Of a DNA stretch of 64,000 nucleotides, positions 38,592 through 61,072 are shown piece after piece (position 1 is the stretch's first letter; each line of letters begins with the position of its first letter). The translations under genes and the position numbers were made by a program. Origin of the DNA: a virus (Duplodnaviria > Heunggongvirae > Uroviricota > Caudoviricetes); IMG/VR virus record IMGVR_UViG_3300042691_025398, positions 55,814-119,813 of that record. One strand, written 5' to 3'. Below the pieces are notes generated by a model that saw only the letters and a list, made by a program, of their open reading frames with translations, was not told where the DNA came from and did no database searches.

Positions 38592-39881
38592 TTAATAACG
38601 GTATGTTTCTGGTTTGAAGGGACCTTGCACAGGTACATTGATGTACTCTGCTTGGGCATCAGTGAGGGTGGTAAGTTCTGCGCCCACATGTGCCAAATGA
38701 AGTCTAGCCACTTCTTCATCCATGTGCTTGGGCAGTAAATAAATCTGTCCAGGTTGATACCGGTCAGAATGTTGCCAAAGTTCAATCTGCGCCAACACCT
38801 GGTTGGTAAAACTGTTTGACATCACATAGCTTGGATGTCCTGTAGCACAGCCAAGGTTTACCAATCGTCCTTTAGCTAACACTATAATCTTAATACCGTC
38901 AGGTCGGGTAACATGATCAACCAAGGGCTTGATTTCTTGCCAATGCCACGATTGAATGCCGGCAATGTCAATCTCGCTGTCAAAGTGACCAATGTTACAC
39001 ACAATAGCATTGTTTTTCATGCGCAGCATATGATCACGATTGATCACATTGATGTTGCCTGTGGCAGTAACAAAGATATCTGCATGTTCGGCCGCATAGT
39101 CCATTGTGACCACACGATAGCCTTCCATGGCCGCTTGTAAAGCACAGATAGGGTCAATTTCAGTGATCCATACCTGTGCTGACAACGCACGTAATGCCTG
39201 AGCTGAACCCTTGCCTACATCACCATAGCCTGCTACCACAGCTATCTTGCCTGCGATCATGACATCAGTTGCACGTTTGATAGCATCAACAAGACTTTCG
39301 CGACAACCATACAGATTGTCAAACTTGGCCTTGGTCACTGAATCATTTACATTGATAGCTGGTAACTTTAGTGTGCCTGCTTGGACTCGTTCCACTAGTT
39401 TGTGAATACCAGTAGTGGTTTCCTCACTAACACCTACTATGCCAGGCAGCAGTTCTGGATGACGATCATGTACCCATGCTGTGAGATCGTGACCGTCGTC
39501 AAGCAGCATGTTGGGCAACCATCCATCAGGGCCTGACAGTGTTTGTTCAATACACCACCAGTATTCTTCTTCGGTTTCACCTTTCCATGCAAACACAGGA
39601 ATTCCACGAGCAGCTAAAGCCGCAGCCGCATGATCCTGTGTGCTGAAAATATTGCAAGAACTCCAGCGCACTTCGGCACCCAACTCAACCAAGGTTTCAA
39701 CTAGCACAGCAGTTTGAATGGTCATGTGCAAGCTGCCAGCAATGCGAGCACCTGCTAATGGTTTGGCATCACGGTATTTGTCTCGAACACTTATCAGTCC
39801 GGGCATTTCGTGTTCAGCAATGGCTATTTCTCTACGACCCCAGTCTGCTAGACCAATGTCTGCTATGCGATAATCTGTCAT
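38592..39881 (-). CDS. ahcY: S-adenosyl-L-homocysteine hydrolase
   Basis: N-terminal [26 protein letters not shown] is the canonical AhcY start. NAD-binding [10 protein letters not shown] block present. Length 429 aa. Confidence 0.9.
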
Positions 39882-40047
39882 TTATGAAAGTCCTTACGTT
39901 CGTTTCTGTTTGCTCTAGGTGGTGCCATTCTAGATTGCATTTCTGCTTGTACCATGCTGCTGATAAAATGGTGACGCTTGTTGGCATCAATAATCGTAGC
40001 GGCCTGCATTTTGCTGGGTTTGGATAGTTTAAAATGTTTGTTGGCTT

Positions 40048-40311
40048 TCATCGGCGTCCTTTGTTCCTTGAATTAGTTTCGGGCGGTTCACGCAGCAACC
40101 AGGATCTATTGACCTTGCCTGCTTGTATTTCATGCATGGTAGTGCTCAATGGTGTATTGCCTTGATTTACCATTGGTGCATGTCCGGATTTGATTTCTCT
40201 AATGCGTTGACTTAAAACTAACACAGCGTCAAACTGGTTACCCAATTTGTGCACTGTGTCCTCACTGCTTAAACTGATTGCATCTCTCTGTGGTAAATTA
40301 GACATTTTCAC
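40048..40311 (-). CDS. Hypothetical protein
   Basis: 87 aa. Confidence 0.3.
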   Translation of the reverse strand: MKMSNLPQRDAISLSSEDTVHKLGNQFDAVLVLSQRIREIKSGHAPMVNQGNTPLSTTMHEIQAGKVNRSWLLREPPETNSRNKGRR

Positions 40312-40394
40312 TCCAATTGTTTAGTTATGATTATAACACGGAAATGTCTTTCTCACAACAGATATGATAAACCCGCCACTAGGGCGGGTCAGGA

Positions 40395-42313
<1,919 letters not shown>

Positions 42314-42423
42314 CGTTGCCTTCTCCTTTAAAAATAAGCAAGAAAGTATGCACAGTCTCACCTGAGCACTGTGCAAAGGTTATTTATAACATTTTAATCA
42401 TGTGCAAAGCAAGTTTTTTGGAT

Positions 42424-42446
42424 AAAAAAAGCCCTTGCGGGCTTTT
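42424..42446 (-). terminator. Rho-independent terminator after the pstS-porin operon
   Basis: gcccgcaagggc hairpin followed by a U-run on the minus strand. Confidence 0.55.
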
Positions 42447-42487
42447 GCGGGTTACGAGTTCCCGCAGCACTCTATGCTTGTGCTCGA

Positions 42488-43897
42488 TTAGAAACTCAAT
42501 TGACCTCTTAGCATCACTGCTCGATCGCCGTTCACACGACCACCTGACGAGCCAACTGCACTGTCAAATTTGGTGTCAACATAGTTCAACAAGAAACGCA
42601 CATTATCGTTCCAGAACCAGGTCACACCATAGGTCATTGCAGTTGCACGATTGGCTTTGCCTGCTGCTACTGTGATATCACTGGCGTCAAACTCGCTGGC
42701 ACGTACACCCACTTGCCAAGCACCTGTGCCACCTGCTGTGACTGCGGTGTTTGGTTTGATCCAGTTGAACACACCATTACGATAGTTGTGATTTTCACCA
42801 GTCAGGTTGTACACTGCTTGCACATAGTTACCTTGGATTTCACGATCAACACCAGTGGTGGGATCATATTTGAAGTTGAACATTTCACCTTGTACCTTGA
42901 GAGCACGATAGGCAAATGCAGCCTCTAGTCCTTGGCGTGTGCGTTCGGTCTCACCACTTAATGCACTGCCAGTGAACCAGCCACTGTGCAATCTTGCTTC
43001 AGTGCGGCCACTTGCTGGAGTTACGCCACCTTTGATGCTGCCTTGACTGTAAGCACCGCCTAGATGCACGACCATGTCTTTGTTCTGAATGATTTCTGCA
43101 ACGTTGGTAGTTAAACGACCAATTAAATCAACACCGTCAACTGTGGCATCCTTGTTGGCACGACCACGGCTGGCTGCAAGTGCATAGGTAAAGCCCACAG
43201 CAGGCACACCATGAATCATCACACCAGTTTCTTTAGCAGGAATAAACTCACCATCAGTGTTGCCCACTAGACTGCGTTCCATGAAGTCTATATTATTAGA
43301 GCTGGTTAATTGCTCAAGACTGAATGGCATCTTGAATGTACCAAACTGCAATTGTGCAGCTGGATTGGCATCATAGTTGACCCAGAACTCATCAATGGTT
43401 GTGGAGGTTGAACCAGCGCCTACATCATTGCCAAAGTTTGCCAGCAGCTGATATTTGAAGTCCTTGGCAATTTGTCCACGAATACCAAAACGTCCACGAC
43501 GCATTTCCATGGTGTTTGCGTAAGAGTCAGTGGTTTGACCTGTAGCGTAGTCTGGGCTGTAGTTTCTATAGTCCATGTGGATACGACCAGTGAACTGAGC
43601 AGTGGTGTTTCCATCCTTGCTCTTGATGCCAAGTCCATTCTCTAGAACTGAACCATCGTTGGCCTTGCTCACACGATAGTTGTTGTTGTCGCGAATGTCT
43701 TTGTCAATTCTTGACTGGTTGAACTGTTTATTTTCTTGCTTGTCACGATAGGTTTCTAGTTTAGAATCATATTCCTTCTGTGACAGAATGCCTTTTTCTC
43801 GCAAGATATTCAGAGTATCAACATACTCATCTGCGTGTGCTGCGCCAAAACAAAAACTCAAAGCGATAGCAACACTTAGTTTTTTAAGATTTTTCAT
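42488..43897 (-). CDS. Outer-membrane porin, likely phosphate-selective (OprO/OprP-like)
   Basis: Signal peptide. Alternating beta-strand composition. C-terminal aromatic residue (…RGQLSF). Co-directional and adjacent to pstS. Confidence 0.5.
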   Translation of the reverse strand: MKNLKKLSVAIALSFCFGAAHADEYVDTLNILREKGILSQKEYDSKLETYRDKQENKQFNQSRIDKDIRDNNNYRVSKANDGSVLENGLGIKSKDGNTTAQFTGRIHMDYRNYSPDYATGQTTDSYANTMEMRRGRFGIRGQIAKDFKYQLLANFGNDVGAGSTSTTIDEFWVNYDANPAAQLQFGTFKMPFSLEQLTSSNNIDFMERSLVGNTDGEFIPAKETGVMIHGVPAVGFTYALAASRGRANKDATVDGVDLIGRLTTNVAEIIQNKDMVVHLGGAYSQGSIKGGVTPASGRTEARLHSGWFTGSALSGETERTRQGLEAAFAYRALKVQGEMFNFKYDPTTGVDREIQGNYVQAVYNLTGENHNYRNGVFNWIKPNTAVTAGGTGAWQVGVRASEFDASDITVAAGKANRATAMTYGVTWFWNDNVRFLLNYVDTKFDSAVGSSGGRVNGDRAVMLRGQLSF

Positions 43898-43906
43898 TGT
43901 TTGTCC

Positions 43907-44932
43907 TTATTTCCAAATAGGCTGACCGTCGGCACCTTTTAACTGAGCCTTCCAGTTGTCCTGTACCAATTTTACTACACTATTTGGCAAATGTACATAC
44001 TCAAGTTCTTCACTCATCTTGCTGCCATTTTTAAATGACCAATCAAAGAATTTAAGAATAGCACGACCTGTTACAGCATCCGCTTGCTGACGGTGCATGA
44101 TGATGAAACTTGCACCTGTGGCTGGCCAAGCATCTTTACCTGTTTGCCAAGTTAGCAATTGATAAAAGCCAGGAGCATTTGCCCAATCAGCACCTGCTGC
44201 TGCGGCTTTAAATGTACTGTCATCTGGTTGTACAAAGTTACCATCACGATTTTTCAATTGTGCATGGGCAATTTTGTTTTTCTTAGCGTAGGCATATTCA
44301 ATGTAACCAAACGCACCTTTGATACGCTGCACCTGTGCAGCAACACCTTCGTTGCCTTTACCGCCTACACCAGTTGGCCATTTAACTGCTGTGCCTTCGC
44401 CAACTGCTTTTTGAAAATCAGCATTGGCCTTGCTCAAATAGTTGGTCCAAATGAATGTAGTACCTGAACCATCTGCACGATGTACCACAGTGATATTCAA
44501 AGCAGGAAGACTCACACCAGGATTTAGATCTGCTATTGCACGATCATTCCATTTTGTAATTTTACCAAGGTGAATGTTGGCAATCACGTCACTGGTTAGT
44601 TTAAGTTGCCCTGCCTCGATTCCTTCAAGATTCACTACAGGCACAACGCCTCCAATGATAGCTGGGAACTGCATCAAGCCTTCTTTGTCTAGTTCTTCAA
44701 TTTTCAATGGCATGTCTGATGCGCCAAAGTCCACGGTCTTGGCCTTGATTTGACGAATACCACCACCTGATCCAATTGATTGATAATTCAGGCCAATGCC
44801 TGTGGCTGCTTTATATGATTCAGCCCATTTTGAATAGATAGGATAGGGGAAAGTTGCACCTGCTCCAGTTAAATCAGCAGCTGATGCTGAAATAGCCAAA
44901 GAAGTTGCCAATAGTGCGAGTAATTTTTTCAT
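43907..44932 (-). CDS. pstS: Periplasmic phosphate-binding protein PstS
   Basis: Signal peptide, then GAGATFPYPIYSKWAESY...GSGGGI PstS signature. Confidence 0.85.
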   Translation of the reverse strand: MKKLLALLATSLAISASAADLTGAGATFPYPIYSKWAESYKAATGIGLNYQSIGSGGGIRQIKAKTVDFGASDMPLKIEELDKEGLMQFPAIIGGVVPVVNLEGIEAGQLKLTSDVIANIHLGKITKWNDRAIADLNPGVSLPALNITVVHRADGSGTTFIWTNYLSKANADFQKAVGEGTAVKWPTGVGGKGNEGVAAQVQRIKGAFGYIEYAYAKKNKIAHAQLKNRDGNFVQPDDSTFKAAAAGADWANAPGFYQLLTWQTGKDAWPATGASFIIMHRQQADAVTGRAILKFFDWSFKNGSKMSEELEYVHLPNSVVKLVQDNWKAQLKGADGQPIWK

Positions 44933-46932: not shown

Positions 46933-46965
46933 TACAATCCTATTACAATTTTGAAAATATTTTCA

Positions 46966-47290
46966 TGAAAAAGCCCGCCGAAGCGGGCTTACTATTTTGG
47001 GTGACAAGGCATAGTTGCCTCGGAGGTTAGGCTGCTAGAGCGAAAACCTCGTCGTTAGCTGCGTTTGCAGTTACTATTTTGCTTGGATTACGTCCATCGC
47101 CTTTCGTGTTGCCTTCTCTACTATCTCACCCTGTCGAAACCTTGACTGGCCCATCAAAAGCATACTTGGAAGATTTATTAACCGCTGACTCTTACTCTTC
47201 CCCAGCGTCACTATAGTATGCTTTTGGTGGACCAGGCGGGAGTCGAACCCGCGTCCAGAATGCCTTCGCTTTGAAGGAATTACAACAATA
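46966..47290 (-). ncRNA. ssrA: Circularly permuted (two-piece) tmRNA
   Basis: The tRNA-like 3' end GGACGCGGGTTCGACTCCCGCCTGGTCCACCA (reverse complement of 47225-47260) lies upstream of the coding piece. The coding piece starts GGGCCAGTCAAGGTTTCGACAGGG at about 47153 and carries the tag reading frame ..GCAAACGCAGCTAACGACGAGGTTTTCGCTCTAGCAGCCTAA (ANAANDEVFALAA*). A terminator hairpin lies at 46968-46990. The 5' boundary is approximate. Confidence 0.7.
46968..46990 (-). terminator. Rho-independent terminator of tmRNA
   Basis: aagcccgcttcggcgggctt hairpin plus U-run on the minus strand. Confidence 0.6.
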
Positions 47291-47648
47291 CTTGAATTTT
47301 ACATTTATTTTTGCAGCATGTCAAATTACTCAACCTAGTATTAATCTTCATCTATTTTATGATGGTAAGTTTCATACCATAGTGCAAATAACACACCAAG
47401 CAAGCATCCCGTAAATATGGATCCTAAAAGAACTCCAATGATAAAATACAATTGTTCTGTGCCCATTGTTATTTTTCTACCAATCTTTGTTCACAACGAG
47501 CTTGAATTTTATCTTCTCTGTGATGAATCAATACTGGCAGTATTTCTTCACATTCTTCTCTGCGAGCAAAAGATTTCCAATCACGCCATTCGCCATCTGC
47601 TGCTACTAAAACAACAAGAACCCAGACGTATGATCCCACATAAGTTTC

Positions 47649-53734: not shown

Positions 53735-54109
53735 TTAACGTAAACATCTAGCTCGTGCTTCGATCATGTGATCAACATTGCCTTTAACCACTACATTGGT
53801 ATAGGTATCAACAGTGCCACTAGCATGATCATACACTCGGTTATCCACTGCATGATAGGTACGCACACGTTCGTCACTGGCACGATAGCGTTCGGTGTCT
53901 TTGTGAAAGTGCCGCTCTACTCTAGCGCGACACACTGCTAGCGCATTTTTTCGATTGTCTTCTCTGCTGCGACTAGCAGTGCCATTGGCCTGTATGCCTG
54001 TGGGTTCATGGATACAACGGCAACAATTCTGATGTTTGTTTCGATGTTGACCACCACCACCGGTGCTGGAGAACCATTCAAATCTAAATTGGTCTTCTGT
54101 GATTTTCAT
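53735..54109 (-). CDS. arfB: ArfB-like peptidyl-tRNA hydrolase (GGQ motif, RF-1 domain protein)
   Basis: FSSTGGGGQHRNKHQNCCRCIHEPTGIQANG...SRSREDNRKNA parallels the release-factor/ArfB GGQ catalytic loop (GPGGQHVNKT..AVRLTH.PTGI...ERSQ..N). Basic C-terminal tail. Start trimmed to the internal Met MKITEDQF. The ORF track extends to 54211. Confidence 0.65.
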   Translation of the reverse strand: MKITEDQFRFEWFSSTGGGGQHRNKHQNCCRCIHEPTGIQANGTASRSREDNRKNALAVCRARVERHFHKDTERYRASDERVRTYHAVDNRVYDHASGTVDTYTNVVVKGNVDHMIEARARCLR

Positions 54110-54384
54110 TATAGATTCCTCATGCTCAACAGCAGTGCAGTTAAGTATTTTTCTTCTCGAAATGCAATAAAATGTCTGTGATCTTTCTTGGGCATGGTGT
54201 ACCATCCCCATACAGGATTTTGTATTCTATCCTGATTCCAGATAGACCAACCTTCGCCATGCTCCCAATATAATTTGTGACGCAGCTCTACAGATTTTAT
54301 CACTTCCCAACGCCAGGTTAATGCATAGATTAATCCTGCACGACCCAATTGATATCTTTTGTCTAGCTTGATAATCTTCATCAC
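54109..54384 (-). CDS. Hypothetical protein
   Basis: 91 aa. Its stop overlaps the arfB-like start. Confidence 0.3.
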   Translation of the reverse strand: MMKIIKLDKRYQLGRAGLIYALTWRWEVIKSVELRHKLYWEHGEGWSIWNQDRIQNPVWGWYTMPKKDHRHFIAFREEKYLTALLLSMRNL

Positions 54385-55528: not shown

Positions 55529-55996
55529 CTACAATGCACCATTGGCTATTCGGTCTGCTGCATAACTTGCAGCAAATGCCCGAGGTTTCACCAAGGGAAT
55601 CACATTACATGTGCCACGAATGTAACCAATAGCTTGACTGATCACACAGCTAGAACCATGCTCTTCATTGGGGTTGATATCCAAGTGCACTTCTACTGGA
55701 AAGTCTCCCATGATTGGTGCTAGACGTTGAAACATGTCACTCACACGATACACTTCATTCATCAATCGCATGGCTGGCTTACTGGCCTTTTGATCGTAAT
55801 CGCGTTCCTTGGTGATTTCACCAAAGATTTTACAACCATTGTTGCCATTCACATGCACTACCACTGCCACGGTGTATTCTGCAAACCATACACCTTTTTC
55901 TCTAAATCGCACACTGTCTGCGCCAAGATAAACTTTTGTACCCGGACCGCAGTTGTCGATATATTGTTTTACTTCATGTAAGTTTATCTTAGGCAT
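55529..55996 (-). CDS. Hypothetical protein within the tRNA array
   Basis: 155 aa ORF. No confident motif. Confidence 0.35.
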   Translation of the reverse strand: MPKINLHEVKQYIDNCGPGTKVYLGADSVRFREKGVWFAEYTVAVVVHVNGNNGCKIFGEITKERDYDQKASKPAMRLMNEVYRVSDMFQRLAPIMGDFPVEVHLDINPNEEHGSSCVISQAIGYIRGTCNVIPLVKPRAFAASYAADRIANGAL

Positions 55997-59394: not shown

Positions 59395-59701
59395 TAAAAT
59401 TAATGCTAACAAGGAACTGACTGTTACATGATGCCGAAGTCATGGTCGCATCAAACCCTTGCTGAACCCTTGAGGGACGATCCGCATTTGATCGTTTTAT
59501 TCTAAATTTTGAATCAGCCACTTGTTTTCCACTCAAGCCCTGAAACTGAGTTGTTACCCTGTCCATCCCTTTTATTCTCTGTCTGTGTGCAGAGGGATAC
59601 TGCCTATCAGATTCTGGGTTACCCCGCTAACGGTTTTCTGCCACCGGACCTCTATCGCTAGTCAAACGCTACTTTTAGGAGAGTAGTAACCGGAACTGGT
59701 T

Positions 59702-59773: not shown

Positions 59774-59824
59774 ATTGTTTTGCAATATTTCTAGTGTAAC
59801 AAAAAGAATTTTATTGGTCAACCA

Positions 59825-59897
59825 TATAAAAACACACTATCCTAGATAACCTCTTTGGGACGGACCTTAACCGTTCAAAATGTGTTTTTATATGGTG
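59825..59897. repeat. Long-stem hairpin element, copy 1 (CCATATAAAAACACAC ... GTGTTTTTATATGG)
   Basis: 14-bp inverted arms flank about 44 nt. The right arm abuts the CCA end of tRNA-Lys. Confidence 0.6.
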
Positions 59898-59969
59898 GGG
59901 CCACTGAGATTCGAACTCAGGCCTGACGGATTAAAAGTCCGCTGTCTTAACCGCTTGACTATAGCCCCA
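59894..59969 (-). tRNA. tRNA-Lys (UUU)
   Basis: Stem GCGGA/TCCGT. Loop CTTTTAA. Confidence 0.65.
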
Positions 59970-60009
59970 TTATCTTATCACTCTTGTCACTGTCCATGAT
60001 GGACTCTCC

Positions 60010-60237
60010 TTATAATGTTTTACCTAGTCCCATCCAGATAAGTTGGTCTAGATCTGCTTGGTAATCTTTGCCTAATCTACGTTTTTCGTAGATGGCTTTT
60101 AATATGACCTGACCATCGCCGTAGTCAGTGGTGCCTGCTCCACGACGCTCTAGCTCTAAAACCAGTTCGTCTGTGTCAAAGTCTTCCATATCAATGTCAA
60201 CATCAACTTCTTTTGATACAGTTATATAACGACTCAT
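60010..60237 (-). CDS. Hypothetical small acidic protein
   Basis: 75 aa. Confidence 0.3.
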   Translation of the reverse strand: MSRYITVSKEVDVDIDMEDFDTDELVLELERRGAGTTDYGDGQVILKAIYEKRRLGKDYQADLDQLIWMGLGKTL

Positions 60238-60458
60238 GGTATTTTTCCTTTATAGATTGTAAGGCCACCTTGTCCCCAAGGCCCCTCACTGAGTTGTTAC
60301 CCTGTCCGCACATTTGTACTTGTGGCTAGAGCGTGGACTCCACCTACGTTTTTTCTATCACCCATATATTGGGCTTTGAGGCTATCAACGTAAGAGCCCT
60401 GGCATTGTGGTGAAGCCAATTTACCCCCATGACTAACGAAGATGGGACTCCGGGATAC

Positions 60459-60530
60459 CATATTGAAACACACTACAAAACGCTGTCACGCTCAGAGTTC
60501 GTCCATTAGCGAAGCAATGTGCTTCAATAT
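60459..60530. repeat. Long-stem hairpin element, copy 2 (CCATATTGAAACACAC ... GTGCTTCAATATGG)
   Basis: Inverted arms flank about 45 nt. Abuts a tRNA-like T-arm/CCA fragment at 60531. Confidence 0.6.
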
Positions 60531-60562
60531 GGTGGACCGCGGGGATTCGAACCCTATACTAG
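60531..60562 (-). other. tRNA-like 3' fragment (T-arm plus acceptor 3' strand plus CCA), resembling the tmRNA 3' end
   Basis: Reverse complement reads GGGTTCGAATCCCCGCGGTCCACCA. No matching 5' acceptor strand was found nearby. Confidence 0.4.
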
Positions 60563-60634
60563 TTACCTAGCATATTTTCTCTCTGCGACTTCGGGTGATC
60601 ACTCCCTAGCCGGCAACCATTGCCATTACAGCCC

Positions 60635-60696
60635 ATATTGAAACACACTATGCCACGCTCTGAACCTGGACTCTTAGTAATGTGCTTCAATATGGC
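60635..60696. repeat. Long-stem hairpin element, copy 3
   Basis: CCATATTGAAACACAC - 33 nt - GTGCTTCAATATGG. Confidence 0.6.
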
Positions 60697-60796
60697 AACA
60701 ATGTTGACTACCCTTCTAGCCCACGGTCAAGTTCTGCTAGTCGCTTTAGGGTCACCGGTAGTTCTGTCGCGCAACAGGTTACCGATCATTGTTTAC

Positions 60797-60891
60797 CATA
60801 TTGAAACACACTTAGGAATTGAACCTTTTTCAGCGAGCATCGCCTGTCTACCAAGACACCCTTTCGAACGGGTCAAATGTGTTTTAATATG
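60797..60891. repeat. Long-stem hairpin element, copy 4
   Basis: CCATATTGAAACACAC - about 65 nt, containing a GGAATTGAACC T-loop-like segment - GTGTTTTAATATGG. Confidence 0.6.
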
Positions 60892-61072
60892 GCCCAACAA
60901 TTAGCAGTATATACTGCCGCCAATTATTGGTCAACCATATTGTTGGGGTCGACACCCCAACCAGGAGTCTTACTGATCGCGTTACCGCCGCGTCTTCATG
61001 TGTCCTGTCCGCCCGTTTGCAGTTTTTTGTGAACTGCTGGTCCTCGTTACCTTAAACACTACGACAATTAGC

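Follow-up and report, generated by a model that had tools for sequence, protein, structure and literature searches.

The window analyzed here, i.e., the whole stretch of 64,000 nt from the Caudoviricetes record IMGVR_UViG_3300042691_025398, contains four hairpin elements at the head of its tRNA array. The hairpins share one long stem, the 5' arm of which begins with CCA, and each encloses a different insert (hereafter the cargo). They belong to a family spread over the tRNA operons of related phages, in which the stem is conserved and the cargo is exchanged. We estimate at about one half the probability that these modules are co-transcribed punctuation and small-RNA scaffolds of the tRNA operon, the arms doubling as handles for cassette exchange.

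The conserved stem

The family was sampled by an exact scan of the IMG/VR viral contigs for CCATATTGAAACACAC. Elements were defined as paired arms 50-190 nt apart with at most 3 mismatches per arm, and nearly every locus has them. This led to at least 248 paired-arm elements in at least 120 loci, which total 1.1 Mb and contain 1,564 tRNA genes. The family figures used throughout (248 elements, 120 loci, 171 cargo clusters) are those among the matches listed. Copies are thus not absent from related genomes, the outcome that the initial annotation would have taken against such a family: related phages carry hundreds of them.

The RNA-sense consensus is A-CCAUAUUGAA(A/G)CACAUU, followed by 25-120 nt of cargo and by AGUGUGUUUCAAUAUGG-U. 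The two arms form a clamp helix of 18 bp, i.e., 5' (A)CCAUAUUGAARCACAUU / AGUGUGUUUCAAUAUGG(U) 3', which extends from the discriminator position to about position 18. Family-wide, the 3' arm is followed by U (81%), then by A/N and A/N, with no U-tract. Stems of the sense strand contain 1.94 G·U pairs per element vs. 0.19 A·C over the at least 248 members, and the inferred sense strand is the strand of the nearest tRNA in 205 of 221 cases.

Helix covariation was calculated on 72 distinct stem constructs and 22 columns. The cells are paired at 87.4%, a value that falls to 31-46% if the partners are shifted by 1-3 columns; changes occur on both sides in 18 of the 22 pairs, and none of 500 shuffles reaches any of these measures. 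In 57 of the 72 sequences, U·G occupies pair 16, i.e., a conserved wobble. These measures show the stem to be a helix under selection. Conservation is 90-100% at most arm positions of the family alignment; orthologous proteins of the same loci are 50-70% identical (median of 63% for the DUF458 protein). The arms of one element pair with each other at 16.7 of 17 positions vs. 16.06 of 17 with the arms of the neighboring element (p = 4e-7), thus the local hairpin is the selected fold. On the same basis, the alternative register, in which arms would enclose the RNA situated between one hairpin and the next, was rejected as the selected structure. It should be noted that diverged stems exist, including variants with diverged yet compensated outer stems. 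A gapped-pattern scan for such stems gave chiefly chance matches, with extended stems in 16 of 115.

The four hairpins of the window

The four copies recognized by the initial annotation were recovered by repeat search and by folding, their limits being displaced by 1-4 nt only. In the 64 kb, the 14-mer arm has 8 matches with at most 2 mismatches, all within 59822-60892, i.e., confined to 1.1 kb at the head of the tRNA array; the expectation from shuffles is 0.92 ± 0.93, and none of 100 shuffles reaches 8. The additional matches obtained at 3 mismatches are dispersed and at chance level. The repeat search gave arms of 16 nt and 100% complementarity for hairpin 1 (pair I2, 59821-59836/59881-59896), 94% for hairpin 2 (pair I5, 60457-60472/60518-60533) and 89% for hairpin 3 (pair I3, 60633-60650/60678-60695). 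The arms of hairpin 4 were found in the direct-repeat families D1/D2 (60795-60813 and 60875-60892). The arms had been described as inverted, which is correct, and as 14-16 bp long, which is too short: the minus-strand stems reach 18-20 bp when G·U pairs are counted.

Every copy folds as a long-stem hairpin, with z-scores from −3.7 to −6.0 on the minus strand. The minus-strand fold is the stronger one in three of the four copies: −34.2 vs. −22.7 kcal/mol for hairpin 2 (z −6.0), −27.2 vs. −17.9 for hairpin 3 and −35.5 vs. −30.6 for hairpin 4 (z −4.65). A·C mismatches of the plus strand correspond to G·U pairs on the minus strand. All 28 tRNAs, the transfer-messenger RNA (tmRNA) and the neighboring open reading frames (ORFs) are also on the minus strand. 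With the minus strand as functional strand, the elements sit after the 3' end of a tRNA.

Two copies were expected to start at an encoded CCA, and this holds for both. The first four stem nucleotides of hairpin 1 are A73-CCA of tRNA-Lys(UUU) (59968 to 59893), the encoded CCA being common to the tRNA and to the hairpin. Hairpin 2, which is also present in the near-identical phage L063, begins at the A-CCA of an upstream tRNA-like RNA (...GGGUUCGAAUCCCCGCGGUCC-A-CCA). The latter had been called a tRNA-like fragment. The likeness stands while the word fragment does not, since it is predicted to fold as a complete tRNA-like RNA of about 100 nt. The predicted fold has a 7-bp acceptor stem (GGGCUGU/GCGGUCC, with G3·U70), A73, CCA, and D-like and T-like arms without a normal anticodon arm. 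Its G1G2 are the final two G of hairpin 3. It has neither an ARAGORN nor an Rfam call, and L063, otherwise near-identical, lacks both this RNA and hairpin 3. The cargo of the four hairpins is mutually unrelated; that of hairpin 4 contains a T-loop-like GGUUCAAUUCC adjoining the 3' arm and a D-loop-like GUCUUGGUAGAC.

Table 1. Hairpins, neighboring RNAs and promoter-like sites in the window.
Feature	Coordinates	Strand	Description
Hairpin 1 (HP74)	59821..59896	minus	−25.8 kcal/mol, z −3.7; stem A-CCAUAUAAAAACACAUU...AGUGUGUUUUUAUAUGG-U around 40-nt cargo
Hairpin 2 (HP75)	60457..60533	minus	20-bp stem including G·U, 41-nt cargo
Hairpin 3 (HP63)	60633..60695	minus	29-nt cargo ACUAAGAGUCCAGGUUCAGAGCGUGGCAU
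Hairpin 4 (HP97)	60795..60893	minus	63-nt cargo
tRNA-Lys(UUU)	59893..59968	minus	ARAGORN; Rfam tRNA 70.3 bits; ends ...GGCCCC-A-CCA
tRNA-like RNA	60530..60634	minus	between hairpins 3 and 2; predicted fold
Structured spacer RNA	60696..60795	minus	100 nt; closing helix AACAAUG/CAUUGUU; next come G and the CCA of hairpin 3
Sigma-70-like promoter	60906..60934	minus	TTGACC-17-TATACT; 10/12 matches; ends 13 nt upstream of hairpin 4
Sigma-70-like promoter	59793..59821	minus	TTGACC-17-TACACT; TG before the −10 hexamer; upstream of tRNA-Met

Position of the hairpins in the tRNA operons

A tRNA lies within 20 nt of 145 of 245 hairpins and within 500 nt of 220 of them. The CCA of the stem is the 3' CCA of an ARAGORN-called tRNA in 96 of the 248 elements, and about ten further elements follow uncalled tRNA-like 3' ends. 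At the other end, the next tRNA begins at the final two G of the stem in 27 elements. The CCA is encoded by 97% of the tRNAs of these loci, whether a hairpin follows them or not. Downstream tRNAs continue on the same strand, 0-12 nt after the hairpins, and the gaps between hairpins cluster around 65-200 nt.

The comparison of empty and filled sites indicates that hairpins take the place of ordinary inter-tRNA spacers of 2-12 nt. After tRNA-Glu, the CCA is directly followed by AGUUUUUGG in L037, and by UAUUGAA...CAAUAUGGUA and then AAGUUUUGG in L087. Between tRNA-Leu(UAG) and tRNA-Ala, L064 has a 9-nt spacer and L025 has UAUUGAA...CAAUAU exactly between the CCA and G1G2. At the tRNA-Ser site, L056 is empty while L008 and L036 are filled with different cargo. 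At all three sites, the insert UAUUGAA...CAAUAU has the CCA on one side and the next RNA on the other. No target-site duplication is found at these three sites, and the empty and filled sites differ also in the adjacent spacer.

Hairpins are much commoner after tRNA-Glu(UUC) (28%), Lys(UUU) (28%), Leu(UAG) (23%) and Gln(UUG) (16%) than after the other tRNAs, a preference partly confounded by shared ancestry. None follows tRNA-Met (0/127) and none follows Asp, Ala or Cys in the related loci listed. The discriminator is A in 72 of 95 hairpin-adjacent tRNAs. An end-to-end closing helix of 6 bp or more, located immediately before N-CCA, is present in 21% of the non-tRNA spacers vs. 3.9% of shuffles. 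Together with the folds of the window, this leads to the conclusion that hairpins alternate with tRNAs and with CCA-ending tRNA-like RNAs.

The cargo

The inserts of the 248 elements fall into 171 similarity clusters, 125 of which are singletons. tRNA-Glu is followed by 18 different cargo classes, and a single class may follow Leu(UAG), Lys(UUU) or no tRNA; e.g., the cargo of hairpin 1 is found after tRNA-Lys in L007, L063 and L071 and after tRNA-Leu(UAG) in L027. The 29-nt cargo of HP63 is near-invariant in 10 contigs (a single-base change in 2 copies) in which the stems and flanks differ. It occurs after tRNA-Glu (L007), after tRNA-Pro (L028), at a syntenic non-tRNA site (L071) and elsewhere, the 63-nt HP63 element being present in at least 7 different contexts. 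Compensatory changes were found in cargo helices, at 5 of 39 and 3 of 43 predicted pairs.

The most enriched k-mers of the cargo are those of the T-loop. GTTCGA is found in 22 classes vs. 2.8 expected, and GGTTCGA is used 16 times in sense and once in antisense. In 21 of the 171 classes the T-stem adjoins the 3' arm as it does in tRNA, and many T-arm inserts also carry a UGGUGG/UGGUA loop.

Several more specific roles of the cargo were rejected. It is not a hidden tRNA: ARAGORN calls none of the 248 elements once the stem has been shortened to 7 bp and ACCA appended, and no Rfam tRNA hit overlies any hairpin at E-values up to 1-5. It does not pair with the upstream tRNA better than with random tRNAs (p = 0.23). 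It is not an antisense or a mimic of anticodon loops, with 5 complement and 10 sense-copy matches vs. 8.7 ± 3.0 complement matches expected from shuffles. Since anticodon loops are not enriched, the match of the HP75 cargo to the anticodon arm of tRNA-Asp (I11) is taken as chance.

Exchange between related phages

At one syntenic site, the flanks of which are about 85% conserved, five phages have five different contents. The window has hairpin 4, the spacer, hairpin 3, the tRNA-like RNA and hairpin 2; L063 has the same content without hairpin 3 and the tRNA-like RNA. A single hairpin is found in L007 (70 nt), L001 (101 nt) and L071 (63 nt). Exchange, gain and loss at the arms are thus directly observed.

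Extent and novelty of the family

The carriers are T4-like freshwater phages. The genes neighboring the family loci encode RegA, the gp44/gp62 clamp loader, dCMP deaminase, Hsp20, a 5'-3' exonuclease, HNH endonucleases and a DUF458/RNase H-like protein. Over 596 Gb of cellular genomes, matches to the arm 17-mer are about as frequent as chance predicts, thus the hairpins are not a host element. The few genuine cellular matches are short tRNA-array contigs binned in freshwater metagenome-assembled genomes (Planktophila, Crocinitomicaceae, Lac Pavin Planctomycetia and probably Polynucleobacter).

Among GenBank phages, no close relative of the region was found (tRNA matches only), and a 65-nt hairpin query gave nothing meaningful. 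Diverged copies are present in the cultured lake cyanophage BUCT-ZZ01 (ON615601), a Synechococcus phage: (i) directly after tRNA-Lys (AUAAUUAUCUUAAAGCACAUUG...UUAGUGUGCUUUAAAAUAAUUAU), at about 123,299-123,393 of its record; (ii) ending 3 nt before tRNA-Met; (iii) beside the tmRNA, overlapping its predicted 5' end. No cultured relative of BUCT-ZZ01 with the hairpins of that phage was found. Stenotrophomonas phage DLP6 has a similar tRNA array and a DUF458 gene, without such hairpins.

Rfam scans by E-value of the window from 45 to 64 kb and of six related loci placed no family on any hairpin; they gave tRNAs, tmRNA and one GOLLD RNA only. In the literature, the arm sequence matches only unrelated primers, and keyword searches gave no description of such elements. 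The family thus appears to be undescribed.

Interpretation and alternative explanations

If the hairpins are indeed punctuation and small-RNA scaffolds, the following steps may be proposed. An 18-bp clamp helix with a fixed U·G closes a structured insert of 25-120 nt, sometimes a mimic of the tRNA elbow. The duplex would insulate the fold of the cargo from those of the neighboring tRNAs, and would offer a site where a double-strand-specific nuclease of the RNase III type could cut. Maturation of the tRNA 3' end at the CCA would set the 5' end of the module; CCAU↓AUU would fit the preference of RNase E, which is RN↓WUU. RNase P cleavage of the next tRNA would set the 3' end, and a small, stable hairpin RNA with the cargo inside would result. 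The arms, being common to all copies and to every related phage, would act as recombination handles, i.e., as short homology patches for the exchange, gain and loss of cargo and of tRNA-plus-hairpin units. Among the four options of the initial annotation, RNA processing or stability signals fit best, given the strand-specific wobbles, the orientation matched to that of the tRNAs, and hairpin ends that adjoin the CCA of one tRNA and G1 of the next.

Several points weigh against this interpretation. Structure, strand, conservation, tRNA-operon context, exact junctions and cassette exchange are shown by the sequences; the transcription, processing and stability of the hairpin RNAs are inferred, as are the nucleases that would cut them and a possible role of the cargo. 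A recognizable tRNA is not adjacent to about half of the hairpins. RNase III would not need the sequence of both helix strands to be conserved, and this conservation points to a specific partner or to recombinational homogenization. It is also inflated, because the exact 16-mer seed and the 3-mismatch threshold favor consensus arms. Generic punctuation leaves the bias toward tRNA-Glu(UUC), Lys(UUU), Leu(UAG) and Gln(UUG) unexplained. The covariation within the cargo comes from small alignments of 4-5 sequences, and the diversity of the cargo could be that of a neutral filler. Finally, the G·U asymmetry would fit equally a single-stranded DNA hairpin formed on that strand.

The elements may alternatively be pure processing or insulation spacers, in which only the duplex matters, as an RNase III-type site or a folding insulator comparable to the leader-trailer stems of rRNA, the cargo being neutral. 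Stems of 18-20 bp, the hyperdiverse cargo with its 125 singletons and the replacement of ordinary 2-12-nt spacers all agree with this, as does the cross-complementarity of neighboring arms (16/17), by which either register gives a duplex. We nevertheless hold it to be rather unlikely. The HP63 cargo is essentially invariant in 10 contigs with differing stems and flanks, cargo helices show compensatory changes, and T-arm and D-loop-like motifs are enriched, oriented and placed as in tRNA. Moreover, most tRNAs of these arrays have plain short spacers between them, thus a hairpin is not generally required for processing. Selfish mobile DNA, i.e., miniature inverted-repeat or single-stranded DNA hairpin transposons of the IS200/IS605 or REP (repetitive extragenic palindrome) style, inserted in one orientation 3' of ACCA, with arms recognized by a transposase or nuclease, would account for the presence/absence polymorphisms with junctions exactly after CCA, for one 63-nt element in at least 7 contexts, for the indel between the near-identical window and L063 and for an arm sequence conserved beyond structural need. 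Insertion is strand-specific, single-stranded DNA tolerates G·T wobbles, and HNH endonuclease ORFs are common in these arrays. The suggestion of miniature mobile elements made initially is supported to this extent, including the swapping of cargo between related phages. Other findings speak against it, and we regard it as clearly unlikely: no target-site duplication was found at the compared sites; the cargo differs in every copy of a genome, which is the opposite of families of miniature inverted-repeat transposable elements (MITEs); and the 20 most recurrent neighboring protein families include no transposase, Y1/HUH enzyme or integrase. The window elements are never outside the tRNA operon, and the cargo has RNA-sense features (T-loops at 16:1, helix covariation). 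Since the adjacent spacer differs too, recombinational replacement fits better than clean transposition.

A ribonucleoprotein or decoy scaffold is quite improbable. Here, the stem with its fixed U·G would be the docking point of a single protein from phage or host, in the manner of the Ro-binding stem of Y RNAs, and the cargo would give specificity, e.g., as decoys for tRNA-targeting defense nucleases. The sequence-conserved helix with its wobble pair is in line with this, and a shared terminal stem with a variable interior resembles the architecture of Y and vault RNAs. The T-arm stacks on the stem in the 21 classes described above, many of them with UGGUGG/UGGUA loops. tRNA-Glu(UUC), Lys(UUU) and Gln(UUG), after which hairpins are enriched, are known targets of anticodon nucleases. 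On the contrary, no binding protein co-occurs specifically with the hairpins (DUF458 is also in the hairpin-less DLP6), none of the hairpins has a YrlA hit, and the 30 window ORFs scanned include no TROVE/Rsr protein. Anticodon-loop complements (5 vs. 8.7 ± 3.0 expected) and pairing of the cargo with the upstream tRNA (p = 0.23) are not enriched either. Intrinsic terminators, CRISPR-like repeats and tRNA intron remnants share with the hairpins only strong stems or repetition near tRNA genes, and such an origin is hardly credible. The stems have no U-tract, a terminator scan flags none of the four, and tRNAs go on downstream, sometimes with 0 nt between. The arms are inverted rather than direct and the spacing in the window is irregular (636, 175 and 163 nt), so that the initial exclusion of CRISPR was justified. 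There is no match to an Rfam intron or other family, and the elements lie after the CCA, between RNA genes and not within them. Terminators and intron remnants, both proposed initially, are therefore abandoned.

The scaffold-and-punctuation interpretation can be extended into a more speculative one, which we think improbable though worth stating. The array would be an "RNA-gene integron" of T4-like freshwater phages, in which the 18-bp stem would be at once a processing signal, a stabilizing clamp and a recombination handle, and in which hundreds of diverse structured RNAs would dock at the CCA ends of Glu-UUC, Lys-UUU, Leu-UAG and Gln-UUG and be traded between co-infecting phages. RNAs that mimic the tRNA elbow might be decoys or effectors in phage-host conflict. 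The pairing of the UGG(U) at the stem 3' end with the target (A)CCA is perhaps a hint that docking is guided by RNA.

The tRNA arrays of phages are commonly treated as mere tRNA lists; here, they also contain a large repertoire of exchangeable structured small RNAs built on a single conserved stem, and unannotated tRNA-like RNAs also sit between the hairpins in the arrays of this clade. If the hairpin RNAs accumulate, phages would have a new class of non-coding RNA that comprises hundreds of variants, and nature would offer in them a modular RNA scaffold, i.e., a fixed clamp with a swappable insert freed by tRNA-processing enzymes. The tRNA-flanked guide RNAs of synthetic biology use the same design. 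The family is in addition a testable case of short conserved repeats driving modular evolution in T4-like genomes. Since BUCT-ZZ01, the host of which is Synechococcus elongatus PCC 7942, carries diverged copies, experiments are feasible.

Other features of the region

The structured spacer RNA (Table 1) is identical in L063. The promoter-like site at 60906-60934 is preceded by a solo 3'-arm remnant (...CAAUAUGG, 60924-60940), a 17-nt repeat (D10) of the flank of hairpin 1. The site at 59793-59821 begins at the last nucleotide of hairpin 1. Upstream of hairpin 4, a conserved non-coding stretch (60893-61070, minus), within which the promoter-like site at 60906-60934 lies, is about 85% identical in L001, L007, L012, L047 and L071. 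Its compensatory changes (GCAGUU/AACUGC vs. GUGAUU/AAUCAC) suggest another structured RNA. The 20-nt GGACAGGGTAACAACTCAGT is repeated exactly at 59545-59564 and 60288-60307 (minus), 0 copies being expected, and is also found in L063, L080 and L099. It is located upstream of the ORF 60010-60237, at a distance of about 50 nt, and of tRNA-Glu, at about 150 nt. It could act as a phage promoter or as a regulatory RNA motif.

In addition to the genes found next to the family loci, the window encodes a tmRNA of the permuted type (46936-47338, minus, tag ANAANDEVFALAA) and, within the tRNA array, an RF-1-domain protein (53735-54211, minus), which may be an ArfB-like peptidyl-tRNA hydrolase. The presence of both suggests that the phage brings ribosome-rescue functions. 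Also inside the array is the DUF458/RNase H-like protein (PF04308, phrog_11311; 55529-55996, minus), a candidate RNase of the tRNA operon. Homologues are present in 30 related loci and in further large phages rich in tRNAs, i.e., DLP6 (inside its tRNA array) and Ruegeria, Xanthomonas and large Vibrio phages. As it recurs in the arrays, it was considered as a hairpin-specific nuclease, and rejected as such because it is also found in DLP6, the array of which is without hairpins. Auxiliary metabolic genes are found at 38592-44932, i.e., those of a phosphate-selective porin O/P, a PstS-like phosphate-binding protein and an S-adenosylhomocysteine hydrolase; GroEL is encoded at 40395-42017.

Comparison with known systems

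The closeness of the hairpins to several known systems was considered property by property. Like T4 rnaC and rnaD (species 1 and 2), they would be non-tRNA small RNAs of the tRNA operon of a T4-type phage. rnaD starts 1 nt after tRNA-Arg, and rnaC has a tRNA-like T-arm by its 3' end, as do the 21 cargo classes described above. In T4, maturation by tRNA-processing enzymes is established. Unlike the hairpins, rnaC and rnaD are two fixed genes, with no shared long stem, no interchangeable inserts and no pairing with the CCA of the preceding tRNA. No sequence similarity to the hairpins was noticed, no formal similarity test having been made.

RNase III stems (rRNA leader-trailer, T7 early mRNA and a reported step of T4 tRNA processing) are, like the hairpins, duplexes of about two turns that bracket stable RNAs. 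The predicted helices of 18-20 bp, with 87% of cells paired, are of the length of about 20 bp expected for double-stranded RNA in a precursor of stable RNA. However, such sites are not known to form families of conserved sequence that have a fixed wobble or structured inserts recurring across genomes. Small RNAs that adjoin a tRNA-like structure, and the end of which is made by cleavage at the tRNA end, are also known: the TMERs (tRNA-pre-miRNA transcripts) of murine gammaherpesvirus 68 (MHV68), MALAT1/mascRNA and plant tRNA-snoRNA. These are eukaryotic or herpesviral and depend on RNase Z acting at CCA-less ends, whereas the hairpins are phage-borne and their CCA is encoded and base-paired.

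Promoter-early stem-loops (PeSLs) of T4-type phages are conserved repeats that mediate insertion, deletion and replacement in close relatives (Arbiol et al. 2010, PMC2839356; Comeau et al. 2014, PMC4122927). They consist of a promoter and a terminator flanking protein ORFans, a short GGGG...CCCC stem-loop terminating transcription (PMC2839356, PMC4122927). In both systems a repeated stem-loop motif may serve as a homology patch, and the hairpins have the same pattern of indels and replacements between close phages (the window vs. L063, L007, L001 and L071; the tRNA-Ser, Glu and Leu sites). Short homology is all that T4-type recombination requires. PeSLs are a documented precedent (PMC2839356, PMC4122927). 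The hairpins differ by their long 18-bp stem without U-tract, their variable part located inside, their CCA-anchoring in tRNA operons and their RNA-strand-specific wobbles. Promoter-like sites adjoin two of the four window hairpins, but the stem-loop is not terminator-like and the family-wide 3' flank is not a −35 box.

Bacterial MITEs (Correia, RUP) and IS200/IS605 elements are also small, with terminal inverted repeats that fold as a hairpin and with presence/absence polymorphism; the arms of the hairpins are indeed inverted repeats of 17-18 nt. IS200/IS605 elements insert, in addition, in one orientation 3' of a short specific sequence. The hairpins differ by the lack of target-site duplications, by their differing interiors, by their restriction to tRNA operons and by their RNA-sense cargo, and no cognate transposase is found among the 20 most recurrent neighboring protein families of the loci. 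As regards Y RNAs, the T-arm of the hairpins stacks on the terminal stem, i.e., the topology is different, and the sole weak YrlA hit is on the tmRNA (E = 0.9), with no TROVE domain in the 30 window ORFs scanned.

GOLLD and ROOL RNAs are phage-encoded, found in lake metagenomes and located in or next to tRNA arrays, as are the hairpins. They are single RNAs of 400-800 nt with conserved cores, whereas the hairpins are modular, of 60-160 nt and without Rfam match. A GOLLD RNA with an embedded tRNA (RF02032, 191 bits) is present in the tRNA array of a related phage (L046, 10590-11049), thus the clade also carries GOLLD.

The comparison leads to the conclusions that: (i) the hairpins are not a classical MITE, CRISPR, terminator, intron, Y RNA or other Rfam family; (ii) their ingredients are known, i.e., the small RNAs encoded in tRNA clusters of phages, the processing stems and the shuffling mediated by repeats; (iii) their combination, in which a single universal stem anchored on CCA accepts hundreds of structured inserts that are interchangeable, appears to be new.

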